This document shows positions 1-24,433 of a stretch of 64,000 nt of DNA, one piece after another. The DNA is from Raillietiella orientalis. Its lineage: Eukaryota. The notes beneath the pieces are model-generated. The model made no database searches and was not told the DNA's origin. It saw nothing but the letters and a program-made list of their open reading frames with translations. A program made the position numbers and the translations under genes. The stretch's first letter is position 1; each line of letters starts with the position of its first letter. Where the stretch lies: NCBI GenBank assembly GCA_036172245.1, contig JAYWIR010000104.1, forward strand, positions 62,001 through 126,000, given 5' to 3'.

Positions 1-840
1 CCACTCCACATTGCTGCTCAGCAATATCACCAAGAAGTTGTTGAGGTTCTCTTGAAATTTGGTGCCAGCATTGACTCTAAAGATGGATATGGTAGAACAG
101 CTCTTCACATTGCCACTAAAGAAGGATTTATACAAGTTGTTAAAACTCTCCTACAAAATGGCTCCGATATTAACATCGCTAGTAAAAATAATTGTACACC
201 GCTTGATTTTGCTAAGGATGCTATCAGACAATTGAGACACACATGCTTCAGTGATGATTCTGATGATGATTCCTCTTATGATAGTGGTAGTTTTTTGTGG
301 CATGAAATTGCTCAAATTCTTAGACACCACATAATTATCATGAAAACTGCAAATTTATATGTAAGCGAGAAAAATTTATTATCAGTTGATGATATAGATG
401 AAATCGATTTCGAGAAGCTATGTATGGAAGAAATTGAAATCATGAAAAATGAGAAGATTGGTAATTCTAAATTCACATTTCATCATACCTTGACCAAAAA
501 TATAAACCAATTAGTAATCCTCTCGAGAAATAAAGATGTAGCACAAGTCCTAAGATCGTTTGATTATGAAAAAAAATTCCCAATATACGGCAGTATGATA
601 AATAATAGTCTTCAGAAAGGGAAAAGAAGAAAGAAATTGCTTGAGCAACTCTATAAAAATGGCCACATCTTCCCTGTGTTATCGCGTGACTGTACTGAAA
701 ACGTACTTAGTTACTTAAGCAATAATGACTTAAGAATTCTAATGGCTGCTTATAAGCCCACTAATGCTAGTAAACTTGGTGCTAATATTGAGAATCTGGC
801 AATTACTTCAAGTATGTCCAAAGCATCATGCTTAGTGTAA
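1..840 (+). CDS. Ankyrin-repeat protein with C-terminal PRANC/F-box-like domain, 5'-partial (runs off the window edge)
   Basis: Frame 1 is open from base 1 (PLHIAAQQYHQEVVEVLLKFGASIDSKDGYGRTALHIATKEG...), giving ankyrin repeats. The C-terminal FPVLSRDCTENVLSYLSNNDLRIL fits the LP..C.E.IL.YLSN.DL PRANC/F-box signature. Stop TAA at 838-840. AT-rich, no intron visible. Confidence 0.88.
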   Translation, partial: PLHIAAQQYHQEVVEVLLKFGASIDSKDGYGRTALHIATKEGFIQVVKTLLQNGSDINIASKNNCTPLDFAKDAIRQLRHTCFSDDSDDDSSYDSGSFLWHEIAQILRHHIIIMKTANLYVSEKNLLSVDDIDEIDFEKLCMEEIEIMKNEKIGNSKFTFHHTLTKNINQLVILSRNKDVAQVLRSFDYEKKFPIYGSMINNSLQKGKRRKKLLEQLYKNGHIFPVLSRDCTENVLSYLSNNDLRILMAAYKPTNASKLGANIENLAITSSMSKASCLV

Positions 841-2076
841 AGGTAAATAGGGCAGTGAGGCAAGTTATAGGTAGTAAATGCAGAATAAACAGGATTTCTT
901 TTGAAGTTACTTTATTTGCAAATTTTACTTTGAATTTATGATTTTTTCAATATACTGTTTTATGTTTATTTCAAAATTGGGTGAATGGTAATCGACCGTT
1001 CCACATCTTCCACCTTTTAAGAAGAATTTAGGAACTTTAAAAAATGAAGTTTAGGACGAAACACCAGGTATATAAGATGTATAGTTAGGTCTTGCGCTGG
1101 TGTGGTACATCCCCACATCCTTTTTTTTTTCAACTAAGCGTTCCATATGCTTTGGACAGTCCTTTTTCGATTTTGATTTAGGAGAAATAGTAGGGAGTAA
1201 CACCATTGAATATTGTGAGTCACATTGTGGGTTTGGGTGCATGGGCACCGACACAGTTTTCGAAATTCCTTATGACATTGGCACCGAGGTGTTTCTCCCT
1301 CGCATTACCATCCACCCATGCACACTGCCGTCATGGAAGCGTTTCTAGCAGTTTCGCCACACCATATCTTCTGAAGGCCAGTATGCAGACAGTCCTGAAT
1401 GCCCACAGATATTCGGTGCCTCTCCTGAGCTTAGCAGACCAAGAGGTGAACAAAGGTGGTTTGATGAGATACCGGGATTGCATACTGCAGAAGAGAAGCT
1501 CACGGAAATCCATGCCCAAAATGCTAAGGATAGTTCGCCGTGGATGTGATACCGAAATGTGTATAATTGATTGCCCTATATTCAGTTCTTTACAAAGACA
1601 AAAACATTCATGGATGTCCATGCGGACGCGCACGAGGTCTCCGAAAAGGAGACCAAAGATATTGTTAATGCTGCAGCCCTAAGATTTGCTGAGGATTTCC
1701 GGCCAGCACACTCTCGTATGTATGTCCGACTGCGTGTTCAGGTGAGTGTGAAGTGACATATTTTAGAAATGCGGAAAAGCTGCCCGATCGCAGGAATTTG
1801 GAATTATGTCGCGACGTGTTCTCTTCCAATTCAATTGTATTCTGACGCATTCTCTTGATTCCAAGGAGCACATTCTAGCATCACAGGTTGCCTGTTTATC
1901 CACATCTGTAAATTTCGGATGAAATTCCTGCAGGTGGATCATGATCCTAGAATCGGAGGCTTGTTGGTTGGTGAGTGGCATGAAGAACACAAGGTACTTG
2001 CGCAAAATTGAAAAATCGGGCACCAAAAGCTGTACAGAACAGATTGATCTTTCCATCTAGTTGGTTAGTAAGCAAG
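784..2076 (+). repeat. Duplicated block A1 (ANK 3' end + ~1.2 kb unknown downstream sequence); paralog of 23112-24402
   Basis: Long collinear identical stretches, e.g. ttcgaaattccttatgacattggcaccgaggtgtttctccctcgcattaccatccaccca at ~1259 and ~23581, and ctgcagaagagaagctcacggaaatccatgccc at ~1485 and ~23808. Confidence 0.93.
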
Positions 2077-2544
2077 AGTTTGTAGGCCGAGCTGTGTTGA
2101 CGCATTTTTCCACATGTCGAGCAGTGCTGTCTCTCAGAAAGGCATCTCTTTTTTTTTCTCACTTCGCACCGTATAGGAGTGGATCTGCACCCAATGCACC
2201 CACTTTTGGTCGCGATCCTCGTGCACATTTGCTCACCTTCACCAAGAGTCCCCTTGTTTCAGTCCCTGGTTTCAAGTCACCAGATGAATGCAAGTTCGGC
2301 CTTTCACCCCGCCATAATCCCAGGCAGGGTGCAACATTTCAAGAGAACTCAGAGCACTCTGAACTGAAGGACCTCGGAGATGCCCTTTGCAGTCACGGAA
2401 TGTTCCGCGTGGTTGAATGCAGCGGCAATCTATCGAGATTCGTAGTTTAGGCGATTGCGTGTATGTGTCCTTTTGCACGTTTGCTTTCAGTTTTTGATTT
2501 CATAGCCTGCCTCCTTACTACTCAGAATGTCATAACCAATGGCC

Positions 2545-2761
2545 GGGAGTGCACTTTCTTCGCCTATCAAATGAACAAAACGTGGCCTCCTGTTTCAAGC
2601 ATCTCACCGACAATAGTAAACGCCATAACATGTGGACGCTGTACCCTGATCTCCTCTTCAATGACGTGAAGGAGCTGTCGGAAGGAGGAGTCAATTTGGA
2701 AAGCCTCGTGCAGATGTGTCTGATGCAGCCAATGGAACGTGTCGGGGTCCACCTTTCCCCT
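2545..2761 (+). repeat. Duplicated block A2; paralog of 24434-24654
   Basis: Both copies translate to WTLYPDLLFN(D/E)(V/M)KELSEGGV(N/H)LE.L.QM.LM...ERV.VHLSPL. The gap between the two blocks is ~470 bp in copy A and ~30 bp in copy B. Confidence 0.9.
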
Positions 2762-3799
2762 TTATGAGCACCCTAAGGAAAGCTATGCGCACCTCACCGA
2801 CGACTCGGTCAGACGCTTTTGCACGTTGGACAGATTTCCGCTTGCAATGTCGAAACGATTCCTCATGTGCAGAAGGCCCGAGTCATTCGATTGAGACAAG
2901 ATTTACAAGATAAAGTCCCCATTTCGATGTGAGGACACGCTTCTCAATTACTTCCTAAAGCACGCTGAGAGCAACATTTCAGGCAAGGAGGGGCTGAAGC
3001 AACAACCCTTTGTACGCTATGAAAGCTGTGAAATCTGAGTGTGGGGTTTTATTTTGGAAAAGAAAAATTCCGGCCTTATTGAAATATGCGTTTAGTAAAG
3101 GAAATTTTCGCATAAACGAATTTGTTGATGGGGATCGCGGGATGCGAAAGCGACAGATGGACGTTATTAGGAAATGATGATGAGAACGCAGAAGACAATT
3201 CGTATGATATTTGCGTTATAGGTGAAGACAACATCGAAAACTTTTGAGTTGATCTCATTTCTGAAGAAGGGTCTGGGGATTCGGAACGGGGAATCGATGG
3301 ACCCAGAAGTGGTCCTACGTTCAAAGGAGAAAATGAAGGTTTAGGAGTAACTGATGAATTCATAAGTGTTTACCTTCTCTCTTCCAAAGAAGAAAGTTCG
3401 AAACGATAGCACAGATCCAACGATCGTTTTGTTGATTATCTTCGGGCAAGAAAAACCCAGATTTTTCTGTCGGCCGTTTAGGTTATATTAACCTGTAATT
3501 TCCTTGGTTTCTATTCACATCGTTGCAGCGTTTGTACTGGAGCAGTTTGTGATTTTTTGTAATTTCGTGTTTGCATCGAGAAGCAGCAAGCAGAACTGAT
3601 GATCAATGCGGAAGCAGAAGTTCTTTAAAAAAAAGATAGCGTCAATGAAAACATTTTCAGAATACAATTTTAACCTTGTTAATTGGCTGCAGCAAGTAAA
3701 CAGTCTGAAGATTACACGCACAGATATGCCGTGAATGCTTTTCATCCTTGTCCTTGGATTGACAAACATAGGAAACATTATTCATTACGGGAAGCCTTT

Positions 3800-3997
3800 G
3801 GCCTCCTTTTGCTTGGGAGACGCGATCTTCCCGGCTCCCTCACCTAAAACTGCGGCGTTCACAGGCAGGCATTTCTGCCTGTCAACGGCCGTGAACCACA
3901 CAAAAAACAATAGCAAAAACTCCTATACACGGAGCGCACAACAAATACGTCCGACGCCAGCCGGTATCTATCACCAGGATATGCCAAGGCATTTATT
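3800..3997 (-). mobile_element. Decayed Tx1-like 3'-end motif followed by the 5' UTR/ORF1 start of the next copy
   Basis: The minus strand reads AATAAATGCCTTGGCATAT (3997-3979), a transition-decayed form of AATAAACGCCCCGGCGTGA. CGGACGTA follows at 3953-3946, then caggcagaaATGCCT (ATG 3872), paralleling caggcagcgATGCCT at 7175. Confidence 0.55.
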
Positions 3998-4069
3998 ATC
4001 CTAATTTTCTACAAAATTAGATAACAAAGTCTTTGAAAATAGTTTTTTATGGCGGACTTGTCGTGAGCC

Positions 4070-5596
4070 GGTGCTAAGACCGGCGAGGTCCTCTCCCTAG
4101 GCGCAGGGCCGCGGTATGGAACGCGTTTGCGGCTCTCATCCTCCACTCCCTGCTTTTTGTTTGCCCCGTCCCCCTCCTCTTGAAAAAGAAAACAAGGAAC
4201 CTCCTAAGCATCGTCCATTGGGGCAAGGGGAGGCCCCGAGTGCCTCTGATGGACTTATGCTCTCCGCGTTGGGACGGAGGTCTTGGTCTCTTGACGCTGG
4301 AGCGCATGGAAATTCAGCTGCGATGCCGCAGCATGGCTATCGCAGCGCAGTTGTGGAACACCCCTTGGTGCGTTACGGCCCGCCTTCTTGCCAGCCGTGT
4401 CTCCAGGACGCAAGGACTCCTGTCGTTTCTGCTGTGCTCCGGCCGGAAGATACGAAGCTGTGGCCTGCTCCTTGGTCGCATGGCCACCCTGGCAAAGGAG
4501 AACGGCTGGATGGTCTGCAGCTCCGCCAACTCCTCCGCATGGCTGTAGGAGACAGTTGGCACGTGGGAGAAGTTAAACCAGCAAAGAGGAGAATCATGGA
4601 ACCGCCTGAGTCCCGGCATCTACACCCGCTGCACGCTGCGGAAGATGATCGAGTGTCCCGCCAGAAGCACGTGGGCGGAGACGACCCCACTGACCACGGC
4701 GTTGCCCTACCTGAGGATGGCGCTTTATAACAGCCGGAAGCCGAGGTGGCAAGTCTTCTGCCGGATAGCGGGAAGGGAGAAGGAGTTAAGTGGATTGACC
4801 ATGAGGGAACTGGCTGACGCCGCGACCCCAAGCGTTCTGCCGCGAGGAATCCAGAGATGGGGCGAGCTGCTTGGCATCCCGTTGGATGACCTAAAGTGGC
4901 CCCCGTTATTCAGAGAACTATCCACCCTCCCCCTTAAGTGGCAGGAAACGACGCTGCTGTTGTTGCATTGGGGTCTTTTCTGCAACACGCTCCACCACCA
5001 CTGGACGTTGGGGAACGTGGGACAGAACTATGCAGTGTGTGGGGAGAAGGAATCCGTCCCCCACCTGTTAGTGGACTGTGCTGCCCTCCGGCAATTGTGG
5101 GAACGTTTTGCTACGACCCTCCGAATGCCGGTCAGAAGTACCCACAGAGACGTTGTGAGACTCTTCGTGCGAGACGCCCTGCCACCAGCCTCAACCCTGG
5201 CAGCGCTATGCTGCCTCCGAGGGATTGTGACTGCGCGGAGAGCAGCCAGCAGAGAAAGCAGCGATAGGGACCCCATCGTACACGCGGGTCACTACCTGCC
5301 AATCGCGATCGGCTGGTCCCATCTGGGAGATATGACGAGGGACCTCGAGGGCATCCTGGAAAGGATGGTCTCATCCTCCAGCGGGCTGTGATCCCTTCCC
5401 GACCCTCCAAATAGTTTCTTTTTGTGTGTGTGTTCCATTTATTATTCTTTTTGTTTTACCCCCTATCCCCCTCCGCTGCAGAGGAGAGTCAAGCCGGTCT
5501 AACAACCGGCTTCCTGGCTGGTCCCATGAACTATTGGCCGTAGCGAAGCCTGGTACCGTGGATGTACAGTATCTATTAATAAACGCCCCGACGTGA
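4070..5596 (+). mobile_element. Tx1/L1-clade non-LTR retrotransposon, 5'-truncated ORF2 C-terminal half + 3' UTR
   Basis: Post-RT motif L(C)SPRWDGGLGLLTLE, LHWG and a degenerate zf-RVT (YAVCGEKESVPHLLVDC). Stop at 5391, then a T-rich UTR and terminal AATAAACGCCCCGACGTGA at 5578-5596. Confidence 0.88.
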
Positions 5597-5708
5597 GAAC
5601 TCCCCAACGTCTAGTGATGCCTGCATGCGTTGCAGGGGAGACTCCAGCCAGCAGACTCGACTGCTGCCATTTCTGGGGAAGGGTAGTCGTGTATCGTAGC
5701 ACTGGGGG

Positions 5709-7085
5709 CTACTCGAGTTTTTCTTTTGGAATGCGCAGTAGCTCGCCCCAGCGTTGGAGTCTTTGAGGCAGGACACTTGGTGTCGTGGCATCCGCCATCT
5801 GACCCATGGTCCAGCCGCTCATTATTCTTTCTTTGACTTCAATCCTGCAGGTGACCTGCCACCTCGGCGTTATGCTGCTGTTCAGTTCCCTTCCCAGAAA
5901 AAGCAACGCCATTGCGACGGGAGACGCTTCAGCCCACGCGGTCCTCGCAGGACACTCCAGCACCTTCTGGAGCGAGTAGTGGGAATAAGGGCAGTGCCGC
6001 AGGCAGTTCCAGTTTTGATTTGCAGGTTGATGCATCCTTGCCCACGTGCCAACAGTTTCATCTAGCCAAGTGCTAGAGATCACGGGGCTGCAAATCATCC
6101 ATGCGTTCTCCTTGGCCAGAATGGCCATGCGCCCTAGGAGGAGGCCGCATTTCCTTCTCTTCCTGCCGCGGCAATGAAGATGGGACGCGAGCCCATCCGT
6201 TCCGGATAAAAGTCGAGCAAGGAGGCGGGTGGGCACTCACCAAAGGGTGCTCCAGAACTTGACTGCTATGGCCAGGGCTCGCCATCGCAGCTGTGTCTCT
6301 ATGCACTGCAGCGTCAAAAATTCGAGACCTCAATTGCGACGCGGGGCGCACAAGTCGTTTAAAGGGACTCGGGTCTTCCTCTTTCCCCACAGGGCAATTC
6401 GAAGGAGGTCGTTGATCCTTTTCTTGATATAAGCGTCGACGGGGCAAACAAAAAGTAAAGGACGCAGAATGGGGCCCGCGAAAGCGGTCCAAACAGCAAG
6501 CGAAACTTGCCTTCCGGCAACAGGCCGATCGCCAACTCCACTTTTTGGAGGCGATCTGACCAGAATTTGGATAAACCAAACTCCCTCAACGGAACACCAA
6601 GGTATCTCAAGTACCTTTCCGTAGAGATCCCCAGAAGGATCCAGTCAGATCGTCCAGCTCACGTCGCACCAACTGGCAAAACCGACGACTTGGTCCACCT
6701 AGAGTCCTGTTTCACGGCTCAACAGCTCGAAACAATATTCTGGAGCTGTGACCTAAGCGGACATAGGTAACAGGAGCAGGAGATCATCGGCGTAAGCCGA
6801 CACGGCAGGCGTACCGGGGCACGAGCTCGGCAGGGTAGCCAAAGTAACCCTGTAGGCTCTCAGCACCAATTCAAAGTAGGTGCTAAAGAGCAGGAAACTG
6901 AGGCTATCTCCCTGCCTGATTTTGCGCCGCACCGTTTCGCAGTACACGTGTTGTCCCCCCAAAAAATGTTCGTTATCGCAGCACCCCAGCAGGAGGGCAG
7001 GTAAACCGTTAAGGAGGGGGGAATCCCATGCACTCCAGGAACTCCAGAAGTTCCCGGTCCAAGCAGTCGAAAGCTTTACGCGCGT
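5709..7085 (-). mobile_element. Tx1/L1-clade ORF2 internal fragment (RT core to post-RT), degraded
   Basis: The minus strand gives KAFDC, IRQGDSLS.LLFS, AYADDLLLLL and RYLGV, plus CGLLLGRMAILAKENAWMICS, which closely matches the 4070-5596 copy. Confidence 0.9.
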
Positions 7086-7087
7086 TA

Positions 7088-10000
7088 AGACGGACGTGCT
7101 TCCTCGGTGCTCTTCGTGCCAGGAACCGTCCCTAGGTGCGAGCTTCGTGTGCTTCGGTGGTCGATCAGGCAGCGATGCCTGACAAGACCACCAGTGAGTG
7201 TCAGGGGGCGGCGGCAACGTCGCCTCCTGAGAAGATGGTGTGTCAGGGGGCGGCGACAACGTCGCCTCCTGAGAGAATGGAGTGCCAAGGGGCGGCAGAA
7301 ACGTCGCCCCCAGTGGCGATGGAGGTGGAGGCATCCGCCCCCAAAGAATGGTCCCCACTGCAGCGCGGGCGTGGAGCGCCGTCGTAGCGGCGCCATCGCC
7401 TGCAGCCGCGGCGGAATTGTCTGCCTATGTGGAGGAGGGGTATAACCCCTCACTGTTCTACAAGGTAGGCAGTCCATATTGTTCTGAGAGCGCACGCCAA
7501 TTCTCTAAAGGGATGCGCGCTCTCAATGTACAGAAGGAGGAGCTCTGCGCTATGAGCATCCGTAGCGGGGGGCAGTACGTTGAGGTGATCTGCAAACAGG
7601 CAGATCTGGCCCAGCGTGTGCTCAAAACCCCCGTGGTGATGGGGACACGCAGGCTCCTTCCCATTACGGTGGACCGCAGTATGGTAGTCAATCTGTTAAG
7701 AGTTACGGCGCGGATGCGGAAAGTACTTGCCGCGTTGGGAGAACACGGGACGGTCATGCAATGTGGACCAAGCCTAGCCCTTTTGAGGACTATACTAGGC
7801 TGCAATGAGGCTTCACGGCTGCACGTGTAACCGTCCGCGAGGGCTCTTCCCTACAAACTGGTGGTCGACGGCGAAACTGTCGACCTCTGGTATGTAAGGA
7901 AGCCCAAATACTGTGGATTCTGCAACACGTCGGGCCACCTCAAAAGGAGGTGCCCCAACGTACAGTGCCAAGTATGCGGTACAATAAGCCACACGATGAA
8001 GATGTGCCCGCAAGCCGCTGTGCGCGTGGCTTTCGCGAGGAACCTAGAAAAACGAACCCGGCTACTACAAAAAAGGCTTAAAAAAGGCAAATTCTCCCGA
8101 TGTCCGGACGTCCGGTACCATGCGGAGTACAAGGCCAAGGTTGAGCGCCAGGTCTGGCAGTCAGGAGCGGCTTGTCTGCTCGACGACCAGGGCCTGGAGT
8201 ACTCGGGCGCTACCGATGTTCGCCGCCTCCTAAAGCGCTACTACTCCTCGTTGTATGCTAGGGAGCCGACGGAACTTAGTCTCTCGGAGCTCCTCTTGCC
8301 AGCGGATGCCCCTGCGGTCGACGAGGAGGAACGCGCCACTCTAGACTGGCCCTTCACGGCGGAAGAAGTGTCTTCCGCCATTGCGGACCACAAGAAGCGT
8401 AAGGCGCCAGGTGAGGATGGTCTGCCTGCGGAATTCTTCCAGTGCTTCGCGGCGGAACTCATCCCCCTGGTGCTGAGGCTTTCTACGCTGATGTGAGACA
8501 CGGGCAATGTACCGGCCTCGTTTCGCTCAGCAAGGGTGCGTCTCTTGCCGAAAGGCTAAGAGATGCGCCAATTAAGCAACTGGCGTCCGATCACCTTGGT
8601 GAATGCGGACGTGAAGTCGTTCTCCAGGCTCTGGGTCGCGGGCTCAGTCAGAATCGCTGGATCCGTGGTAAGTCCGGAGCAGTCTTACGCTGTTCCCGGG
8701 CGGTCCATGGAGGCGAACCTGTTCTTCGCGCGCACGTGGCTCGAGCTGCAACGCTGCATGGCGCATGACAGCCAGGTAACCGCATCTGCGGCTGCCGCTG
8801 CTAGACGTCGCTGCTTTCGGCCTGAGGAAGCGCCGGGTGCCTTGGCGGTCGCGGTCGATCTCTGCAAGGCGTTCGACTGCGTAAATTAGGATCTCCTCCT
8901 GGAGCTCCTGGAACGCCTCAGTCTCCCGGTGCACCTCGTGGCCTATTTGCGCGCTTGCTGGCGCCACGCTCTCATTTCTATCTCTTTTAGCGGCTGCCAC
9001 GTGTACGGCTTGCCGGTGCGGCGGGGCATCAGACAGGGCGACAGCTTAAGCCCGTTGCTCTTCAGCATCTTCTTTGAGTTGGTGCTGAGGGCGTACAGGC
9101 TGACGCTGGTCAACCTGCCGAGCTCTTGTCCAGCAACTCCGTCCGTGGCGGCCTATGCTGACGACCTGCTTCTCCTTTTACCCATGACCAGCCCGGCGTC
9201 CAGTCTCGAAGATTTCTTCGAGCTGATTCGCCGGGAAGCGGGCATGAGCGTAAACCGGAGCCAGAGCGTGGTCGTTCCTATTGGTGCGAGGTGGGAGGGA
9301 CAGTCCGACTGGATCCGCCTGAAGATCCCGACCGCTTCGTCCTTCCAATACTTGGGCGTTCTGCTGGAGAACATCAGCCCAGTGGAAGTGTGGTCGGACT
9401 GCCTTCGGGAGGCTACGAGTGCTCTGAGCCCTTTCCACCTTGGCAGGTTTCTCCTGGAGGAGCGGGCCACAGCGTGGAACACGTTCGTTTCCCCCCCTCT
9501 TGCGCCCCCTGCTTTTTGTTTGTCCGCCTCCCTACTAGGCCAAGCTCCAGACGCACAGCCTGTTGAAAAACACACTGTGGGGACCTGCGAGGTTTAGGAT
9601 CCTCCTGAAAGACTTGGCGGCTCCGCGTCGGGATGCCAGCTTAGGCATCCTGACGCTGGAGAGAATCGAGCTGCAGGTGCAGCTTCGAATGTTGGCCCTG
9701 TGCGCCAACTTTTGGTCCACTCCGTGGTGCCCTCTTGCGCGCCTGCTCCTGCAGCGCTGCACCGGCAGCGATGGACTTCTGTCGCTTCGGCGGCATACCG
9801 AGCGCGCCACGAGAAGCTTCGGTTTCCCCTTGAAACCGCTTTACCGGCTCCTGGCAGCCCAGGAATGGATCTCCCGCCGTCCAACGAACTTTCAAGCCTG
9901 GCGGCAGGAACCGTTGCATGCTTAGGCAAAGCAACAGGATGTTTCGCTTCTGGAACTCCGTTGCGCTCACCTCTCCCCGTACTGCACGGTGGATGAGGTG

Positions 10001-10580
10001 TGCAACAGCCAGGAGAAGTGGACTCGCCTGGCCGTCACGCCCCTTGCCGACGCGCTGTCAGCCCTCTGGGCAAGAGATGACAGCTGTGAACCGGCAAGGT
10101 GGGAGGTCGCCCGCACCATCGCAGGAGCAACACGACCCATAGGCGGCTGGAGGACTAGCGAGCTGGCAGACACCGCCACGCCTCGCAACATCGCGAAGGG
10201 ACTCCGTCGGTGGAGTGAACTTTTGAGTGTGCCCCCGAAGAACTTGTGGTCCCTTCCTCCTGCTTAAACACTTCTGTGTTCCCCCTTTCTTAGAAGCAGG
10301 ACGTCTTCATGCTGGTGCATTGGGGTTTTCACTCCAACCAGCGGACGAACCTTGTTCCCGGGGGAGTTATCTCCCCGAACTGTAAGCGGTGCGGGGAAAT
10401 GGAAACGCTCCCGCACCTGCTCCCGGACTGCGGTGTCCTCCTAGGACTTTGGCGGAGGCTGGCCTCAGCTCTCCTGCACCAGGGGGACACCGGGAGGGAC
10501 TTGATGCGCCGCTTCTTCACGCCAGGCGGCCTGTCTTTAGGTGCTGTCGTTGCAACGGTCTGTTGCAACGACAGCACCTA
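7088..10580 (+). mobile_element. Near full-length Tx1-like element: 5' UTR, Gag-like ORF1 (RRM-like + 2 CCHC knuckles) joined in frame to RT and zf-RVT; no APE endonuclease; several stops and frameshifts
   Basis: CGGACGTG at 7091-7098 and ATG at 7175. Knuckles CGFCNTSGHLKRRC and CQVCGTISHTMKMC. Then YYSSLY, KAPGEDGLPAEFF, NWRPITLVNADVK, QSYAVPGR (Tx1-type), DLCKAFD, GIRQGDSLSPLLF, YADD, QYLGV and CKRCGEMETLPHLLPDC. ORFs 7282, 7861, 8563 and 8929 share one frame. Confidence 0.92.
7196..7312 (+). repeat. 42-bp coding tandem repeat (~2.8 copies) in the ORF1 N-terminus
   Basis: ECQGAAATSPPEKM / VCQGAATTSPPERM / ECQGAAETSPP. Confidence 0.9.
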
Positions 10581-10797
10581 AAGACAGGCAAAACTCCTCG
10601 CTGGAGGCGAGGGAAGAGCAGTAGAGGCTCCATTCACCTCGGAGTAGGGTCCTGCAGGGCAGAGGGATTCCTCGACATCCATTTTCACAGGCGTCGGCTT
10701 CATTTTCTAATGAAAATTACACCACACCCGAAAAAGTCACCAACCGCAAGAAGAGCACTAGAACCGGAGAGCAAGAATGCACGTCCGAACAATGGAA
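10580..10797 (-). mobile_element. 5' end (UTR + ORF1 start) of a Tx1-like copy
   Basis: Minus-strand CGGACGTG at 10787-10780 and ATG at 10703, the same 83-nt spacing as 7092->7175. It translates MKPTPVKMDVEES...PARSFA, like MEVEAS/KMEVSVEE and ARAWSAVV/SYADVA in other ORF1 copies. Confidence 0.7.
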
Positions 10798-10799
10798 GG

Positions 10800-13400: not shown

Positions 13401-13889
13401 GAAAATGAGGCGGCGCTGCGAGAGCGATTGCGCCACAGGCGGCCAGATGTCTGCCGAAGCAGCAGTTTTCCCCATTCCCACCAGCGGTGGGGTGAATTTA
13501 TTGAACAGCTTGGGATCACAAAATTCATATCATTGGACAGTACGACAGTCCGATGCTCACTTTCACTTTCATAAGCGTTTTTCAATGTCACTCATTGTCA
13601 CTTGCGTGTCACGTTCAAATGTACTCTGCAGGAATGGGGTCACTCAGTTTTAGTGGGGATACCTGCGCAGCTCCTGATCCTAATTTCCTTTTTTAATAAG
13701 CCTTGCAGGATATCCAATGCCTGAGTATTGTTCATTCGGGTCCGCATTTTTGCCCTTCTTATCACGATGCTCCTGATGAATAGGGCATTGTTTGTTTGTT
13801 TTTTTGGTACGCTAAGTACCTCAAGAGCCGGTCTCGTGCCTCGCGGCGCATGTGGCTCTTGAACACTGTTTCACGCCATCCGCGGAGGG

Positions 13890-14450
13890 TGCGTGTTCTC
13901 CAAGATTGGGGGGCACCCCGGAAGGGTCCGCCCTATGAATCCAGGAAGACTCGGAGTCCGTTCCTCTCACGCTTGGGGAGGAGGGATCGCACCTCCCACC
14001 CTGGTTGTCTCCTTCTCATTCTCTCCAGAAGGACCCCCCGGAAAGGGGATGGTCCTCTCCATTTCATATTCTCCGAAGGGAACCCGGAAAGGATTCGCTA
14101 GTAGGAATTTCTTCTCAGGAGGGAGCCCGCAAGGGAACGGCTCCTGTTCACTCCTCTGAAGAGAACCCCGAAGGGACGCTTCCGAAACTCAGAAGGGGCG
14201 CTGCAGCTTCACGCAGGGAATCGCTCTCGCTTGCTTCCTTGCACTCTGTGAAGAGGCGACGACTCGGAGGGTCTCCCCGAAACAGGGGGGTCCGCTCCTC
14301 TGAACAACTGGAGAGGTACCTGTGAAGGCTCCTGCTCCATCTTGAAACCGGAGGGGTCCCTCCGGTGTGGGTGGTCCGCTCTCCGTTGTACGACTGGAGG
14401 GGAAACTCCCTACTCCTTTATTCCTGGGAGGACCCGAAGGTCGAATTTCA
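13890..14450 (+). repeat. Unclassified module of degenerate ~40-50 bp units rich in CCC-NNAA-GGG mini-hairpins; homologous to 30050-30360 (-)
   Basis: Shares collinear words with the reverse complement of 30050-30350: ttctccgaaggga, gctagta..aatttct, tctgaagagaaccccg, cagaag..gcgctgc. Confidence 0.75.
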
Positions 14451-14462
14451 TTGTTCTGGCCT

Positions 14463-17420
14463 TCATCGGGGGGCTCCGGCTGAAACGACCACCGGTGCCA
14501 CACCCGAATGTCTCGGCCAACCAGAGCCATTGCATCGAGGAACGTTACAGTTTTCTTCAAACAACCCCGCCGGCACCTCCATCTTCTTCATCGTTTGCAA
14601 GCTTGTCACCTGCTTCAGCTTGTCCCGGTAGCCGCGCAGCGTCGGGCACGTCAGTATATGGAGTTGGGCTTCCCTGTCTCCGCAGGCCCTGCACATGTCA
14701 TCCCGAACGTTGCCTGCCCAGTGCTTCGTCGTCGTGCCGCTCAGGATGCCTCCGTGATAAAACATCAGGAGGTCATCGTGAGTGTCGATTGGTAAGTCGC
14801 TCGTCCAGACCGTGGTTCCAACCGCCAGCAGGTTCACCTGGCGGCATCCATAACGGCTGGCGGCCGCGCTGGGAGCGTCGTGCTCGTCCAGGTTCTTGGT
14901 TACCGCTTCTTGGATGTTTGCTCTGGTGATCAGCCGCCAGCAGTTGGATTCCTGATTTTTCCAGGTATCCTGTCCCACTATCTTCGTAATGAGGAGAAAG
15001 GGTCGCATCTCCTGGAGGTAGACGCTTCTGGTCAACTGCTCGCAGTCCCCGATGTTCACCCTTGGTCTCTGCAATATCCACTTGCTGGTGTCCCGAGAAA
15101 TGCACAGGAAGTATGGGACGAACAGGGCCAGTTGGACTACCCAGATTTCCTTACTTGGCACAATTTCAAGTTGGTGCTTGTTCAGCAGTGCCTGCTTTCT
15201 CTTCCAAGTCGCGTTGATGTCTTCCCACTTTCCGTGTTTGCCTATAAGGACAGACAACAGGGTTCACGAGTTGTTTGGCAAATGCAGGAACAACTCGGGA
15301 GGCCAGAGAAGGCTCTGTGCGCCGCATAAGGTCACTGATTCCATTTGACGGCGAGATCCAGGATTTGTCGCACGTCCAGAAGATTCACGGATGGCTATAG
15401 CGACTTCATCCCTGCCCTGCCTTTCTCTCGCGGTCGGCACAAGAGTTTTAGCCTGATCCGCGGCTTGCAACGTTTCCAAAGTACTTACCGCTGTAGCTGT
15501 TCAGTTTCCTTACTCTTCCGTTCGTCCAATAGGCAGAAGGCCGCTCCAAAGAGCACCTTGGGAAGGACTCCTCTTTGCAGTTTAACCTTCTGCTTCAGGC
15601 AGGAGTCGAGCAGGGCGTATTCCGCATCCTCTTCTCTCGATGTGCTAAGGCCTTCTTTCCATATCTGTTGCGAAGCCGAGGCGTTGCGGATGTGGATTCC
15701 CAGGCACTTGATCTCGTACACGACTCGGAATCCTTCCTTCGTTAAGGCGGCGGAGAAATCCAGTATTCCGATGGGCAATAGCTGGGATGATTACTAAGCG
15801 TCCATCCGCAAGCCCGAGCCTCTTTCCAGGGACACGACGACACCGAGGAACTCATGCTGATCCCTCTCGTCTTTCAGGAAAAAGAGTACATCGTCCGCAT
15901 ACCTTAGGTGCGTCAGTCTGTATCGTCGTGAAGGCGTATTCCTTGGTCTTCCTTAGGCGGTTGGCGTTGATCTTGGCCAACCATTTGGTGTCCGTGTTCA
16001 AGATAAAGATGAGCCGCTATTGAGTGACCTTATCCAAACCTCCTCTCATTGATAGCAGCCTCATCCTGCTCCCGTGGAACGACTCAGGGGGCCTTCGTTC
16101 TTCTTGGATGCAAAGCGTTAGCTCGTGAAACAACCGCAGGTACGTGTGCTCGTAATGCTGCGAATAAGAGATGAGCACGCGATCAGGGACTGCAGCCACA
16201 TTCTTGCGGATTTCGCTGCATGCCTACTTCACTTCTTCCATGCAGATTTCCTCTTCTAGACCTTCCTGCTGTTGCCTGCTGAGTCGATCCAGCAAGCATC
16301 GCAAAAGAACATCCTGCTCGCTTCTTGGGAGTTTTCCACGTGAAAAGTGGGAGGTGTCATGTCGGTGGAACGCCTCCACTATTTCTTCCGACGTCTGACG
16401 CAGCTGGCCCTGCTGCTTGGTGCAGAAGATATCCATCACCAGATTCTTCTTCTCCTGCACGCCGACTTCCCCTTTAACGTTGCTTGAGAGGTACCGCCTC
16501 ACGCACTGATCCCAGCAGTTGGAGAGGGAATGATGTTGGATGCTGTACTCTTGGTAAGCTTCCTGCCACATCGTCCTGTTTCCAAATTCCGCGTTTCAAA
16601 ATACGTGGATGGTGTGCTCCAATCTGTCCCGTCCTCGACCCTTGTGGTGTCCCGCAGGATTGATTCTATCATTTCCTGGTGACAGGAAAGCGTTTCGAGC
16701 CAGGCAGACACGCAGATGAATGCTGTCATGGTGCTTGTCTGTTTCCGGGGTTCTCCCTTTTCAGTGTGAACCGCAGCAAGGGGCGGGCCGAGAGCAGTGT
16801 CTGCATGTTTAGGAATCTCTGCACGCTGTTGCCTGCACGATGCCTTGACTGTAGAGCACGTGGTGGATGGACTAGTGGCTGATCGTCAAGACGTAGCAGT
16901 TCGAACTCTTCAGAAAACTGCCGATGCCCCAAGTTTACCCCGATATTTCTGGACTTGATCGTGATGCCCAGGGTATTCAGGTCGCCCACGACGACGACGG
17001 TGTCCATAGGTGCGGCCCAGCTGCGCAGGAGATCTCGCACAGCTTCAGCACACCGGTGCTGAAGCTGTGCGCTAGGGGTCCGTTCACGATTACCAGGAAT
17101 AGGTGAACTGCTCCAGAACATGGACATATCCGAACATGGACCATACCACGGGACCAAGAAGAAAAGGATTCCACGACGATGTGCGTGATTATGTTCTTGA
17201 CGAGGATGTGAACGCCCTTCATCTGCCTGTCCTCTGGGCTCAAGAACAGCATGGAGTCGCGACGGCGCATCCAGATTTGTTCCCACTCAGATTTCTGCTG
17301 ATGAATCCAGGATTTTCTCCGAGAAACCCACCGCACTTCCTGTGCCTCCCTGACAAACGTTCCCGCCGAACGAGACCCGAGCCTAGCAACTCCCCTCGCT
17401 CCAGCAGCCGCATGCAAAAT
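14463..17420 (-). mobile_element. Second, divergent L1/Tx1-clade family: degraded ORF2 with APE endonuclease, partial RT and zf-RVT
   Basis: APE-like KGVHILVKN, LVIVNGP and VVVVGDLN. RT-like *RLIFILNTDTKWLAKINANRL and IKCLGIHI. C-terminal CRACGDREAQLHILTC. The central RT appears deleted. Confidence 0.78.
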
Positions 17421-18684
17421 CCAATACGGCCCCGTCCCTTTTTCTTAGAAAGCGAGCAGGTGCTGCGGACCGCTTCCTGGGATACTGAAGGCTGCACAGA
17501 ACAGCAAAATGCGAAAAAAAAAGAGAGAAATCGCGTGCGCGAGGAGGGCAACCACGAAAATGTGAAAGGATAGGGATCGATAATTGAGCAAATGGGGACG
17601 GCGGAACCTCAGGGACGGGATAACGCGCTTTCGACAAGGCACAGGAGCTCCCCTGTCGACCGGTTCATGCCAGGGACCAAGAATCCGTATGTATGGGGGC
17701 AAGTGGACACAAGTGACCGCAGAATAGGGAGGAACTTGCTTAAGGGGTCGCTCGGCTCGCACATACCGATGCAAAGATTTCGGACGAACGGATCAAAGAA
17801 TGGACGAAGCAAAAGCTCCGTTCCTCCTCCGCTGCGGATCGGTAAACCAATTGTTCATCTGATCCGCAGTCTTAGAGGAGCAGGTGATGCCTCACTGAAC
17901 CTCTGAGCACCCTTAAAGCAAAACCACATTTGCCACCTATTGAATTTCCAATTCCTCTGAAACTTTGCGAAACAAAACGACAATGGAAGTGTACAAAGTG
18001 CATCAGCACTCACCGGTATATGTACTATTTAGATGGCACTTCTGGAGACTGCGTACACTTTGAAAAAAAACCTTATGGATAGCAATTTATAATATGATCA
18101 ATTTTTTGCTCTATTTAACTACATAGCAATGTTCTGAACATGAGGAGTGGCTCAGAATTCGAGATGAGGAAAATTTTGGCGTGTGCTATGAAACATGAAA
18201 AAAAAAAAAGCGTGCAGGAATTCCAAGGTTCATGTGAATGAAGGAATGTTATTTCTTTAGCGGATGTGGATTGAGAAGTCATTTCTCGCAAGGATTGAGC
18301 TTTCGCTGGCTGCAGTTTTGATATTTATCGGTGGCGCAGGGGTAGTAATCATGCAAATGGATTGTGGTATTTACTCGGAATGTAAAATACGTTTCATCCG
18401 TTTCGTGTATTTTCCACAGTAAATGCAATCGACACGCCTTTGCATGAGTCAGCATCTCAGTTCAACGGCATGAGATGCCATCGCCCGGAATACAAAATGG
18501 GGAAGCAAAGAAAACCTCACGTTGTGAAAATCATTCACACATCTGTGGCTGATCGTTGTGATGGCTTTGTGCAAGATCAGTCTAAGAGATGAGTTTTCTC
18601 AAACATTGAATTTTCTCCAAACAGATGTGCGATTTTCTGGTATTCGACAAATGGAAATACCCACTGTGGAAATGGTGTGAAAAC

Positions 18685-21196
18685 TCAAAAATCCTCCCAA
18701 GGGATCACTTTTGAAAAATACACATCAAGTCCTTGTCTGTGTGATTTAGCACATCGACAATACATTGATAAAATCAGAAATGCCAAGTAGAATTTCATAA
18801 ATGAGATAACTTCCTTAAAATACCCGAAATTACGAAGCAAGCCTGATGTTTTGGACATACTTGAATTGATTGCCACATTCTCAATAGTACCATCAAGCCT
18901 ACCAGCATAAGTAGGCTGATAAGCATCTACTAAAATTCTTAAATCTTCGTTGCTTAGATAGCAAAGTACCTTTTCAGCACAGTCATGAGATAACACAGGG
19001 AAGATGTGCCGATTTTTGTAGAGTTGCTCTAGCAATTTCCTCCTTTTTGCACCCTTCCTGAAACCGTTATTTATCATACTGGCGTAAATTCGGAATTTCA
19101 TTTCACAATCATAGGATCTTAAGAGTTGGAGTATATCTTCACTTCCCAAGAGGATTGGTTTACATTTTTTGTCAAGATGTCATAAAATGAGGCGTTAGAA
19201 TTACCAAGCTTCTCACTCTTCAGGCACTTCATTTCTTCCTTACATAAACTCTCAAAATGGCTTATTTCAGGTTTAGAGTCACGATGCAGTAATTGCAAAT
19301 TTCTTTCATGTACATACAAATTTGCAGTTTTCATCTCAACTATGTGGCACTTAAGAATTCGAACAATTTCATACCACGCATAAGAATTACGATAAAACCA
19401 ATGGTTATCTGGGTCATAATTGGGGTAAATGTTCTGAAGTGGCTTGTCATTCCAAACAAAATCAAGTGCTGTGTAATTATTTTTACAGGTGATCTTAATA
19501 TCAGAGCCATGATCTAGAAGAAGGGCAACGATCTTGTCATGTCCTTGTTTAGAAGCCATGTGAAGTGCTGTCCTACCACTTTCATCTTTCAAATCAATTA
19601 TGGCACCAAATTCCAAGAGAACCTCAACAACTGCTAGCTGACCATTTCGAGCAGCTTCATGAAGGGGTGTCGTACCCTCATTAGTTTTAGCATTTATATT
19701 AGCTCCTCTATTCAAAAGCAATTTGGCAATTGCTTCCTTTGGGTGAAAGTATGCAGCACAATTTTCATCAAGAAATTTCCTGCCTGCAGCAGTAAAATGC
19801 AATGCCGTTTTGCCATGTTCATCAATAGCATTAACATAAGCACCATGATGTAAAAGTGCTTTCACAATTTCTCTCCATCCCTCCTGAGCAGCAATATACA
19901 GTAGTTCAAGGTTATCTTTTACATTAGTCTTCTTAGTTAGAAGTAGCTTGGTAATTTCCACATCCGCATTTTGAACAGCTAAAAATACAGGCGTTAAACC
20001 ATCTTTGCTTTTAGCATTTACATCAGCTCCATAGCTAATCAACAGTTTGGCAAGCTCCTCCTGTTTATTATGAGCTGCAACATGTAAAGGCGTATAACCC
20101 CATTTTGAGTTGTTTGGCATGTTAGCATCAGTACCGTACCTTAAGAGTTGTTCAACAATTTTCGAATATCCTTTCTTAACTGCAGCATGCAGAAATTCAC
20201 AATTATTTACATCTTCTGGATGAACAGTAAAACCATACTGAAGCAGAGTTTCAAGAATCTGGCCATACTCTTTCCGACAGCCACAGACTGCAATCTTGAG
20301 AGCACTCCTATTACTTCTGTTATTCAAATCAGGACAATGCTTTAAAACATGCTTAATAATTGATAAAAGTGTGCTTTCCACAGCAAAACACAGGGCAGTT
20401 TTCCCATCCTTATCCTGAGCATCAATGTTAGCTCTGCTCTCTAAAAGTAACTTGACCAGTTCTTCATGTCCTCTTTGAACAGCAAAGTGTAGTGCAGTTT
20501 TACCATCTGTATCTTGAGCATCAACGTTAGCTCTGCTCTCTAAAAGTAGCTTAACCACTTCCTCATGTGCTGCTACAACAGCAAGGTGCACTGGGTTTCG
20601 AAAGAAACGAGTACACATAGAATTTACGATAGCTCCATGTTTCAAAAGACACTCAACACTCTGTAAATGCCCTTTTTTTTTTGCTGCCATATGAAGAGAA
20701 GTTCTACCATCCCTTTGTTGGGCATTGACATCAGCACCTCTACTTAAAAGGAATTCCATAACTCCCATGCAATCATCCTTTTCTTTATTACCGAAGTATG
20801 AATAAGTTATACTGTGGCTGCTACTAGGACAAGAAGCCCCTCCTTGATACAACCCTGTAACCCATTGCCATAACACACCCACAACTGCACTGGGAAGTGG
20901 AGTTCCACCATACTGATTTCTAGCATCAATCAAAGCACCTCTATTCTCGGCAATCTCTGTCACCATTCCTGGAACCCAGCTCTAGCATCTACCCAGTTAA
21001 CTTTGCAATGACTTGTTAAAAGTAGTTCAGCAACCTCTGTATGTTTGTGCTGCACAGCATCACAAAGTAAAACATATCCTTGTGACCATACTCGCGAGTA
21101 GGACAAACCATAAGAATGAATTAAGCTCCTCACTCTTTCTGTTCTTCCTTCTCGAACAGCACAAATCAGCTCCCGGATGATATCCTTCTTCCTCAT
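18685..21196 (-). pseudogene. Ankyrin-repeat + PRANC/F-box-like gene, frameshifted (ORFs 21196-20960, 20966-19119, 19149-18685)
   Basis: About 14 ankyrin repeats (GYTPLHVAA, GKTALHFA, GTTPLHEAA, GRTALHMAS). The C-terminus HIFPVLSHDCAEKVLCYLSNEDLRIL is paralogous to 1-840. A 7-bp deletion near 19152 relative to copy 1 shifts the frame. Confidence 0.88.
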
Positions 21197-23111
21197 GACT
21201 ATTCACTCCTAAATTGGAATATTTCCTTTACATAAATGCAGCCAAAATTTGTCCAGTTATTTCGATTAATTCATAAGAAGTTTCACTGATAAGTGGTTCC
21301 TTAAATCTAACAACTTGCCATTTTAATAATGACACTTTAATAAAACAAATTGCGATGTACATTACGTACGCTTCACTTTTACCAACTGCAATAGCAAAAC
21401 TCGTTGGGGTTACGAACACTGCATTCCAGATCAAATTCCACTTCCTTCTTCACAAAAACAAACAGGAAAAATGGTCCCTTGAAGTGCTAAACCTTGCCTG
21501 GACGGATTTCCGGTCGCTTCCCGTACACAATCACCAAAATACTTTTCCTTATTATTACAAATTGAGGAAATTTAGTGTACAAAGACGTCCACATTGGAAA
21601 GGCCCGCGCTTATCCAACGATCTGCAGTTGGTCGGTCTCCTTCATTCAGATGGTTATTGCACAGCATCCAAAGGAAACATTTTCTTCACGAAGAAGGAAG
21701 AAAACAAATGCCCCACACCGGAAGCATTCCCGTGAATTCCTCATTCAGAGGCAAATTCAATGGGCATTTGCTGCAGAAAAGAAACACATATTGGGAAGAG
21801 TGAATGAATTGCAGAAAAGTAAAGTGTCCGATTCCACCGTCCTCGGAGGTTTGAACTTTATTGCTTCTTAAAATCTAAGCATTTATGACAAACAGAACTT
21901 TATTCATAAATACGAAGAAAAATAGAATGAACGTGCACACCGAGCCGAGCCTGCAAGCAAAATGAAGGCAAAGCAATTGATGCGAAGTGCAGGAGTTTCA
22001 GCCACTGATGCACCTATTAAATCGACTATTTGTTTTCATTGAAGGGCACTTTGTAGCATACGACCATGAAATCCGCCACTCTTTTTTCCTTGGTTTCATG
22101 TCTTTGAGATTCATGAAGAGCATCTTCATTATCCATCCGGTCGATCACTTCAATAGTCCGCTTTCTATTACTGTTGTGAGATTTTCAGCTTATAAAGCAT
22201 TCTTTCATGCACGATCGCTATTACAAGTTTTGCAAGGAGCACCATTTATGGAAGGAGACGATTGCTATCTGGGGAACTGAAACTCAGCGATCTTCGTGGT
22301 AATTCTTCAGAGAGCAGCACCTGCCTCCGGAAAAGATCTCACCTAAATGTTAGAAGCACCTTAAAAAAATGCTACGACATCAGAAGTGCATCGACAAACT
22401 GCGACTCGCGTCCATTGCCAACTGCCAATAAATTCTATGCTCAGTGCTCATCCGGAAGATTTCCTAACTCGAAGCAGAAAAATGGATGCCATAAAAACCC
22501 TTTCTTTTCCGCATTTGTTGTATCCAGAGATCAGCGATTTGGGGCGCACAATAAAGACAGTATTATTAACTAGAGAATTCAGAAGTGATGGTGAGCCATC
22601 CTTGTCTCCCACTTCCCAACGAAGACGAATAGGATGGACGAGCCAAAGGACGTCTCGTCCGTGTGAACCTTATGAAGAAACAAAATTCGTTTTTGGCAGA
22701 TAGCCGCCTCAGACCGTTCACCTCTCTTGACCTACTGCTTCCGAGCTCTCTCGAGAGACTCTACTCATGGTAGTGAAGAATTGAATAGTGAAAAACTCCG
22801 ACACACTCTAGTGGTGAGAACACTCACCAGGGAACGAAGAGAGACATGATGATGCCTGATCGAGAACCACCCTTATCAAGGCAAAGTCATATCATGCATT
22901 CGATTGCATTGTGGTCGAGAGACACTTTTCATACGAGCGTGGTCGCCTACTCGTCGCCAACTAATTCATCCACCTATACAACAGGCAGGGATGCAGGTTG
23001 GAGATCAATCTTGCAGTCAGAGCAAACGTCGGTCTAAAACGGCAGCTGCATCTCATCATGTCAGATCATTGCTTGACGAACTTTGTTCTCCACATCAGGA
23101 GATGAAATGAC

Positions 23112-24402
23112 AATATTGACAATGTGGCAATCACTACAAGTATGTCCAATACATCAATCATGCTGAGGTTCATAGAGTAGCAAGGCAAGTTATAGGTAAT
23201 GATTGCTTCATAATTTCATGTTATTTCAAGGAAGTCATTTCATTTCTAAAACTGTACTTGGCATTTCTGATTTTTTCAATAGATTATTTGTTGTTTATTT
23301 CAAAAAGGGGTAAATGGTAATCTACTGTTCCATTGTCGTAGAGGAATTTGAACATTGGAAAAAAATGAACGTTAGGACGAAGCACCATGCATAACGGACG
23401 TATAATTGGGTGTTGCGCAGCTGTGGTACATTCCGACATTTTTTTTCCCTTTGAACTAAGCATTCTGTACGTTTTGGGCAGTCCTATTTCCATTTTGCTT
23501 TAGGAGAAATCGTAAGCAGTAACACCATTGAGTGTTGTGAGTCGCATTCTGGGCTTCGGTGCATCGTAACCGACACGGTTTTCGAAATTCCTTATGACAT
23601 TGGCACCGAGGTGTTTCTCCCTCGCATTACCATCCACCCATACACTCTGTCGTCATCCAAACGTTGCTAGCAGTTTTTGCCGCACCATATGTTATCAAGC
23701 TGGGTATACAGATAGTCCTGAATGCCCATAGATGTTGGATGTCTCACCTGAGCTCAGCAGACGAAGAGGTGACCAAAAGTGATTTGACGAGTTACCGCAA
23801 TTGCATACTGCAGAAGAGAAGCTCACGGAAATCCATGCCCCAAAACGCGAAGGATAGTTCGCCGTGGATGTGATACCGAAATGTGCAGTGTATAATTGAT
23901 TGCCCTATATTCAGTTCTTTACAAAGACAAAAACATTCATGGATGTCCATGCGGACGCTCACGAGGACTCGGAAACGGAGACTCGTGATTTTAATGCTAC
24001 AGCCCAAAGACTTGCTGAGGCTATGCGGGTAGCACATTCTCGTATGCATGTGTGATTGGGTGTTCAAGTGAATGTGAAGTAACTTGTTTTGGAAATGCGG
24101 AAAGGCTGCCGACGGTCGGATTCTGGAAATCTGTCCCGACGTCTTCTTCACCAATTCCAATGTCTTCTGATGCATTTTCTTGATTCCGAGGAGCACATTC
24201 TTGTGTCACAGATTGCCAGTTGATCCACACTTGTAAATTTGGGATGAAATTCTTGCAGGTGGGTCGGATCAAAGAATGGAGGCGTTTTGGTTTCTGAGTG
24301 GCATGAAGAACACACAGGACTTACGCCATATTGAAGAGGCGGAGGACACGAAAACCTGTCCAGAACAAGTTGATGTTTCCATCCAGTTGGTTAGTAAGCA
24401 AG
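23112..24402 (+). repeat. Duplicated block B1 beginning with a remnant of the ANK-PRANC 3' end (NIDNVAITTSMSNTS)
   Basis: Collinear with 784-2076. The first ~170 bp also match the 3' end and flank of the minus-strand ANK copy (cttggcatttctgatttt). Confidence 0.92.
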
Positions 24403-24433
24403 CGTACCACTCAGATTATGAGAATCGATGGAA

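Follow-up and report, generated by a model that had tools for sequence, protein, structure and literature searches.

The ANK-PRANC copies and their setting

The 64,000 nucleotides analysed here, referred to below as the window, are positions 62,001 to 126,000 of the forward strand of contig JAYWIR010000104.1 in the Raillietiella orientalis assembly GCA_036172245.1. They carry three copies of a gene for an ankyrin-repeat protein with a PRANC-like C-terminus (ANK-PRANC), related to gene gwv_1092 of Wolbachia phage WO and set in DNA of a very different character (Table 1); no further copy was seen within the 64 kb.

Copy 1 is open, as the initial annotation of this DNA had proposed: its frame continues past the window start and runs without stop or frameshift to a TAA at 838-840, specifying two ankyrin repeats (Pfam Ank, 59.9 bits), an acidic, helical linker with the motif MKTANLYV, and the PRANC/F-box-like tail. 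An AATAAA lies at 884-889, 44 nucleotides past the stop. Copy 2, read on the minus strand from an ATG at 21196-21194 with homology down to 18835, is spread over three frames (21202-20978, 20966-19155 and 19155-18835), the first, which reads from the ATG to 20963 (21196-20963), closed by a TGA at 20962-20960. Both frame changes are marked by short deletions, so that there are at least two breaks in all, and the stretch homologous to copy 1's 279 open codons is itself interrupted by a frame break. The 615-residue middle piece of copy 2 scores 280 bits for Ank_2, with at least ten repeats, and no intron-like interruption was seen when this copy was aligned with gwv_1092. Over 834 nucleotides, copies 1 and 2 have 74.5% identity, and their proteins 51-65%. 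The description of the copy at 18.7-21.2 kb as frameshifted and of a remnant near 23.1 kb was thus borne out, the latter being the stub of about 19 codons, while the term "amplified", applied to the family as a whole, fits the presence of three copies but has to be qualified by the death of two of them.

Table 1. Features of the window (positions in the 64,000-nucleotide stretch)
Feature	Position	Strand	Basis
Copy 1, 3' part of ANK-PRANC gene, 279 codons	1..840	+	open frame, Pfam and WO homology
3' flank of copy 1, repeated after the copy 3 stub	841..2761	+	
GC-rich (56%) block with decayed non-LTR (non-long-terminal-repeat) retrotransposon fragments, both strands	4000..18000		RVT_1 and repeats
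RVT_1 reverse transcriptase match, 39 bits	8890-9594	+	Pfam
Copy 2, ANK-PRANC pseudogene of full length, spread over three frames, ancestral stop lost	18835..21196	-	frames and homology
Two neighbouring ankyrin repeats in copy 2, mutually 84% identical, 99-bp tandem	20395..20588	-	
Conserved upstream region of copy 2	21197..21335	-	common to 14 metagenome relatives
Copy 3, stub with only the ~19 final codons, body lost	23112..23170	+	
3' flank of copy 3, a paralogue of the copy 1 flank	23171..24654	+	
Further fragments of LINE-like element	38077-39024; 42966-43575		nucleotide identity

The pair of 84% identical repeats within copy 2 reflects a recent internal duplication, of the type that alters repeat number in the ANK-PRANC family.

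In composition the copies resemble the phage gene and not their surroundings. The guanine-plus-cytosine (GC) content is 34% in copy 1 and 39% in copy 2, against 44% in their nearer flanks and 56% at 4001-18000, and the observed-to-expected CpG ratio is 0.34-0.49 in the copies and 0.48 in the WO gene, against 0.86-0.92 in the non-ANK surroundings. A ratio of about 0.9 speaks against a vertebrate host, which was considered and rejected for this reason, and suits an arthropod. Of the 180 stop-to-stop frames with 90 or more amino acids outside the copies, 109 were compared with Pfam (those dropped were mostly shorter and overlapped tested frames), and a single one gave a match, to the reverse transcriptase family RVT_1. 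Fragments like those of a long interspersed nuclear element (LINE) recur on both strands at 66-70% identity (4111-5014 with 6497-5601, and 6626-6950 with 9327-8998), and more of this element is found in the pairs 9564-10518/38077-39024 and 8836-9176/42966-43306. No homologue of the reverse transcriptase piece was found among 8000 scored candidates; its look-alikes are eukaryotic reverse transcriptases, commonest in Arthropoda, a weak pointer to the host. A tblastx comparison of all non-ANK DNA of the window with 60 related loci likewise gave no match.

Nor do the copies have phage or symbiont genes as neighbours. Against 12.5 kb of WO, tblastx matched the ANK-PRANC gene alone, and in a search of five Wolbachia-genus genomes, which did find the ANK gene in the other two segments of the window as a positive control, nothing matched positions 4200-17000 or 27000-46000. 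No WO or Wolbachia DNA other than the gene copies was found in positions 1-46000, and the location is not that of a WO prophage. Judged by their sequence surroundings, the copies lie in nuclear, eukaryote-type DNA. This agrees with the earlier proposal that they are embedded in eukaryotic, retroelement-bearing DNA, for which the RVT_1 match, a large satellite and the lack of any other Wolbachia match in the tested segments all speak. The GC-rich eukaryotic LINEs said to separate the copies are there in substance, as the RVT_1 match and the repeated fragments, but the elements are badly decayed.

Kinship with phage WO, Wolbachia and arthropod genes

To keep generic ankyrin similarity from driving the matches, the query was confined to the part of copy 1 that follows the ankyrin repeats, its tail (residues 70-279). 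Only three of 50,697 phage records matched it, all of them Wolbachia phage WO, with 51.7% amino acid identity over 81% of the query (E 6e-38). The gene matched is gwv_1092 of WOVitA1 (KX522565), annotated as "ankyrin repeat with PRANC domain protein", which encodes 946 residues and has as its neighbour gwv_1093, an ankyrin/TPR gene, in that phage's eukaryotic association module. Copy 2 is collinear with gwv_1092 from about residue 11 to about residue 942 in both tblastx and tblastn comparisons. At the nucleotide level copy 1 is 69-70% identical to Wolbachia chromosomes over 1-822, and copy 2 66-80% across 18908-21166, values that refer to the orthologous gene in two Wolbachia-genus genomes of the five compared.

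The correspondence with gwv_1092 extends through the whole protein. Both have an N-terminal module of about 60 amino acids (..AVREGR..GLSYS..WS.GYVLL), a long ankyrin array with the segment CPD.N..SNRS.LKIAV, the MKTANLYV linker, the PRANC tail and a similar extreme C-terminus (..ITSS.S). The window copies differ in being shorter by about 160 residues of ankyrin repeats, in being partly broken, in having serine in place of the F-box proline, in lying in eukaryote-type DNA without neighbouring WO genes, and in their placement by the tree in another subclade. An ordinary eukaryotic ankyrin gene was considered as a source and ruled out, the non-ankyrin modules at both the N- and the C-terminus being those that match WO.

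The kinship with the phage WO ANK-PRANC protein had been suggested from three motifs (LICAVREGR...GLSYS..WS.GYVLL.DA, CPD.N..SNRS.LKIAV and MKTANLYV), all of which are present in both the window and gwv_1092, and the three WO records bear it out. In the case of the accompanying label "WD0633-like", a literature search yielded no paper that pairs WD0633 with PRANC, and WD0633 is absent from PMC5062602; the comparator borne out here is gwv_1092.

When 1.84 billion cluster representatives were searched exhaustively with HMMER, 702 clusters matched at E<=1e-3, and 190 did so at E<=1e-10. The best identity was 54%, so that no close relative of the window copies is on record. The named relatives lie on megabase contigs of many arthropods. 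They include Hymenoptera (Lasius, Temnothorax, Pseudomyrmex, Halictus, Lasioglossum, Andrena, Osmia, Ceratina, Leptopilina, Microplitis, Cotesia and Nasonia), Diptera (Eurosta, Eupeodes and Episyrphus), Coleoptera (Ceutorhynchus and Photinus), the neuropteran Chrysoperla, the hemipteran Cyamophila and the crustacean Artemia; the bacterial ones are from Wolbachia. Among 60 species-representative genomes of the Wolbachia genus, 25 contain matches to the linker+PRANC profile and three contain the close gwv_1092 type, and a pattern scan of GTDB genomes found two loci. A further 57 loci come from metagenomes, with up to 78% nucleotide identity to copy 2.

In the maximum-likelihood tree of the linker+PRANC region (86 rows, unrooted, with 10 open reading frames (ORFs) from Wolbachia-genus genomes added), copies 1 and 2 come out as sisters (support 100/99), and the pair groups with three proteins of the ant Lasius platythorax at 100/98, or at 97-98 by the Shimodaira-Hasegawa-like approximate likelihood ratio test (SH-aLRT) in other trees. 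Together they sit within a looser group of metagenome proteins. Left out as long-branched were Microplitis, Cotesia, Nasonia, Cyamophila, Ceratina, Eupeodes, Episyrphus, Leptopilina boulardi and three rows of Leptopilina heterotoma. The Lasius proteins (P0010, P0011 and P0170, on contigs of 12-17 Mb) have the full architecture and the highest identity of any named relative, 52-55% in the tail; they differ from the window copies in being only about 55% identical to them and in keeping the F-box proline.

Of particular interest is the DNA ahead of copy 2. About 135 nucleotides upstream of its ATG are 67-75% identical to 14 metagenome loci (for example L007:1593-1921 and L037:3566-3894), and within them an AGGAG at 21210-21206, nine nucleotides ahead of the ATG, resembles a Shine-Dalgarno element; a purine-rich element occupies this position in all eight aligned upstream regions, that of WO included. 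The degree of conservation suggests that the segment is a regulatory or leader region of the ANK-PRANC family. It is kept at this level among family members whose coding DNA is no more alike.

Duplication, decay and the PRANC tail

The last 57 nucleotides of copy 1 with its flank (784-2079) are 80.6% identical to 23112-24405, and a second block (2516-2761) is 78% identical to 24405-24654, giving copies 1 and 3 more than 1.5 kb of common 3' flank at 78-81% identity. About 100 nucleotides following the coding region are common to all three copies. No match to these flanks was found in the 60 related loci, bacterial or metagenomic, and against the five Wolbachia genomes the copy 1 flank gave nothing beyond two marginal short matches. 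Since the 3' flank is common to the three copies, they arose by duplication in this genome; that is, the alignments indicate that the gene was duplicated after integration, together with host-specific 3' flanking DNA. Copies 1 and 2 also have two derived states in common, a serine at the F-box proline and a four-residue deletion just before the motif. The earlier suggestion that the gene had diversified within the host genome is in line with the common host-specific flanks and with the sister pairing in the tree.

Between copies 1 and 2 the Nei-Gojobori estimates are dN 0.30 and dS 0.62, a ratio of 0.49 that falls to 0.31 in the PRANC part and rises to 0.59 in the ankyrin/linker part. When changes were assigned to branches by a custom parsimony count with 12 outgroup genes, the copy 1 branch received 21.5 synonymous changes against 42.5 nonsynonymous ones, a pN/pS of 0.50 (p 0.006 in a one-sided binomial test), and the copy 2 branch 21.2 against 54.8, a pN/pS of 0.65 (p 0.07). 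Copy 1 may thus still be constrained, on modest evidence from these comparisons, and the marginal synonymous excess of copy 2 suggests that selection had to some degree constrained it too, for a part of the time before it broke.

The F-box-like motif of copy 1 reads LSRDCTENVLSYLSNNDL. Set against the consensus LPxExxxxILxxLxxxDL given in PMC11895443, it keeps L1, L10, L13, D17 and L18, with E4 changed to D and I9 to V. Position 2 is the serine already mentioned, in both copies; among 230 relatives it is proline in 199 and serine in 12. In Orientia ankyrin proteins, the joint replacement of L1, P2, E4, I9 and D17 by alanine is reported to abolish or weaken Cul1 binding (PMC11895443), and in the poxvirus ANK/F-box proteins, as PMC9414399 describes them, the ankyrin repeats hold the substrate while a truncated F-box inside the PRANC domain binds Skp1-Cul1. 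The domain layout of the window gene, ankyrin repeats followed by a C-terminal PRANC/F-box-like tail, corresponds to that described for the poxvirus and Orientia tsutsugamushi proteins, from which it differs in the replaced F-box proline. By analogy with those proteins, an intact member of the family would bind its target through the ankyrin array and dock through the PRANC/F-box tail on Skp1-Cul1. With P2 a serine, canonical docking of copy 1 on an SCF (Skp1-Cul1-F-box) complex, if the gene is alive, is uncertain.

The predicted fold of the copy 1 tail is all-helical, with a predicted local distance difference test (pLDDT) score of 90.3 for the 279 residues and 87.1 for the tail alone. In fold searches the 279-residue model found only ankyrin/DARPin chains and no F-box protein, and the tail-only model had no Foldseek match at E<=0.001. 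VIA-align of the tail model gave a best Z of 5.4, on a pair of helices of 43 residues, with no F-box protein listed, and a profile search of PDB sequences gave nothing below E 0.47.

Origin of the gene and its place among known transfers

These observations make it very probable that an arthropod-like nuclear genome acquired the gene, one of the gwv_1092 type, from a Wolbachia-like bacterium, that it was duplicated there, and that the copies are now mostly decaying. In such a course of events, a single gene would have passed to the host, encoding the N-terminal helical module, the long ankyrin array, the helical linker and the C-terminal PRANC/F-box-like tail, and about 135 nucleotides of upstream region would have travelled along with it. 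Local duplication would then have occurred at least twice, taking with it host-specific 3' flanking DNA, and LINE-like elements would have built up around the copies. Decay would have left copy 2 as a pseudogene, copy 3 as a stub, and copy 1 with its 3' 279 codons intact. The bacterium-to-host direction is favoured by the lack of introns, by a GC content and CpG ratio like those of the WO gene and unlike those of the surroundings, by the AGGAG ahead of the ATG, and by the decay of two of the three copies. In this account the homology, the collinearity, the genomic setting, the duplications and the frame breaks are observed, while the direction, the type of host, the age and any function today are inferred.

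Several points weigh against this account. The copies do not group directly with the named Wolbachia sequences but with Lasius nuclear genes and metagenome proteins, and since even the closest relatives reach just 50-55% identity in the tail, a donor cannot be named. Nor is the direction of transfer proven, the tree being unrooted, and Bordenstein and Bordenstein (2016, PMC5062602), who described gwv_1092 and its insect homologues, keep an animal-to-phage route open. The upstream region is only weakly like that of WO itself, with 22 of 34 columns matching, and the junctions between the ANK copies and their flanks rest on the assembly alone. The branch-wise pN/pS values, as counts of our own devising, include one outgroup row that is wrong (L001, whose longest ORF is the neighbouring gene). 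Lastly, the initial assignment of both ANK and PRANC domains holds against Pfam for the ankyrin part, where Ank and Ank_2 score high, but PRANC falls under the cut-off of 25.8 bits, at 23.0 in copy 1 (24.1 for the tail alone) and 19.1 in the last piece of copy 2. Membership in PRANC rests for this reason on homology to proteins that pass: all eight aligned homologues that were compared match Pfam PRANC (PF09372) at E<=0.01, the best at 7.4e-12, and most relatives carry a precomputed PF09372 match.

Because the junctions are known from the assembly alone, one might ask whether the copies are ANK genes of the sample's own Wolbachia, brought onto the contig by chimeric assembly or contamination. 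We find this scarcely conceivable, as the copies are just 66-80% identical to Wolbachia DNA and two are broken, no other Wolbachia gene is found within 46 kb, and within a single contig the three copies are interspersed with LINE fragments and flanks of host type. That they are separate insertions of Wolbachia DNA, with no host duplication, would suit the fact that such inserts can recur, and the copies are old, to judge by their pairwise dS, and differ in orientation. This too is highly improbable, in view of the 3' flank that is missing from all bacterial and metagenome relatives examined, the well-supported clade that the copies form, and their common derived states at and before the F-box motif. 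The reverse direction, with the family arising in arthropods, being captured by phage WO or Wolbachia, and the window copies descending vertically in the host, has more to be said for it. According to PMC5062602, the WO PRANC domain has closer homologues in invertebrates than in other bacteria, and animal-to-phage transfer is listed there as one route; arthropod rows outnumber the named bacterial rows in our trees; and the close gwv_1092 type is confined to the three Wolbachia-genus genomes noted above. Even so, we consider it rather improbable, given the intronless, WO-like composition of the window gene in surroundings so unlike it and the Shine-Dalgarno-like element conserved with WO. The divergent PRANC-profile matches in 25 of the 60 Wolbachia-genus genomes, on the far side of a midpoint root, also argue against it, and the distribution in arthropods is patchy across orders, with species-specific clusters, as fits repeated acquisition. 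Transfer from a Wolbachia-like bacterium to the host is thus the direction we prefer.

A different question is whether copy 1 is still a working gene, for which a moderate constraint can be cited and of which the window shows the 3' third only; on these sequence comparisons we see this as a real but doubtful prospect. Copy 1 would then be a domesticated host gene, comparable to the CLANKs of Nasonia, whose product serves as an ankyrin adaptor either through SCF or independently of it, copies 2 and 3 being its dead duplicates. This is a tentative proposal, somewhat more doubtful than not. It draws on the open frame where copy 2 is broken, the branch-wise pN/pS and the low pairwise ratio in the PRANC part, the confident predicted fold, the retained F-box residues and the AATAAA past the stop. 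To be set against these are the restriction of the visible gene to its 3' third, a pN/pS that amounts to weak constraint when the certainly dead copy 2 shows 0.65, the four-residue deletion just before the motif, and the serine at P2, a position at which most relatives have proline and which is one of the five replaced jointly in the Orientia experiments of PMC11895443. A more elaborate variant seems to us unlikely: that copy 1 and its Lasius relatives are an old, vertically inherited ANK-PRANC lineage of ants or other aculeate Hymenoptera, domesticated like the CLANKs but separately from those of the chalcids, and that in the species of the window the F-box proline was lost before the local duplications, so that the product of the surviving copy acts as a pure ankyrin binder without canonical Skp1 docking.

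Transfer and amplification of ANK-PRANC genes between Wolbachia or WO and insects have already been published, and the window is one further case, mostly at the stage of decay. Pers and Lynch (2018, PMC6161386) report one transfer of ancient date in Chalcidoidea, with four or more recent ones, in Pseudomyrmex, Bemisia, Ceratina and Microplitis; Wolbachia inserts with ankyrin genes are described from the ant Formica exsecta (PMC6469114). The insect CLANKs and the Pseudomyrmex, Ceratina, Microplitis and Bemisia families are, by these accounts, also nuclear, with ankyrin repeats, a PRANC-like C-terminus and duplication in the host, and their nearest non-insect relatives are likewise in Wolbachia. 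The CLANKs are described as mostly having introns, with documented developmental expression and function, whereas the window gene shows no intron in the copy 2 alignment and has two of its three copies dead. To the named insect families the window copies are just 42-47% identical, and they group with Lasius platythorax instead.

The ANK-PRANC copies thus open no new kind of biology, but they do provide a clean, datable example of the fate of a symbiont or phage gene in an animal genome, with duplication that includes host flanks, invasion by retroelements and piecemeal decay, and with one copy perhaps kept. The points worth keeping are the bacterial-type upstream region, the in-genome duplication, the affinity to Lasius and the loss of the F-box proline in both copies. 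In the dispute over which way ANK-PRANC genes have passed between animals and phage WO, the preserved upstream region and its ribosome-binding-site-like element are relevant. The link to Lasius is a hint that genes of this sort could have a longer history and a wider distribution among aculeate Hymenoptera than the cases published so far indicate.

Two other sets of observations concern the setting of these genes. More than a quarter of the window is taken up by a satellite at 45315-62436, made of 40.3 copies of a 425-bp unit with 94% matches, its strands strongly purine/pyrimidine-skewed; no Rfam family reached its gathering score in the window. The 20 metagenome loci that are at least 5 kb long have ORF-poor flanks around the ANK-PRANC gene. 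In a scan of 50 of the 81 ORFs of at least 110 amino acids from these loci (main ANK-PRANC frames and duplicate contigs being left out), two loci proved to have an IS1595-type transposase and one a reverse transcriptase, the only other elements recognised being more ankyrin/PRANC pieces. The transposase (Zn-ribbon with DDE_Tnp_IS1595) follows immediately downstream of the ANK-PRANC gene at both loci (L016:6629-7602 and L023:2789-4014) and is a possible vehicle for moving it. Another locus, L012:1-9801, has an intact ANK-PRANC frame of 1247 amino acids in ORF-poor flanks that match multi-copy Wolbachia DNA at 69-81%, and it looks, from these matches, like either a decayed Wolbachia insert in which just the ANK-PRANC gene is open or a very divergent Wolbachia. 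In L011:255-2012 the longest frame begins inside the conserved N-terminal module with unrelated residues, and since its 5' end thus appears to be frameshifted, relatives elsewhere would also seem to be decaying.

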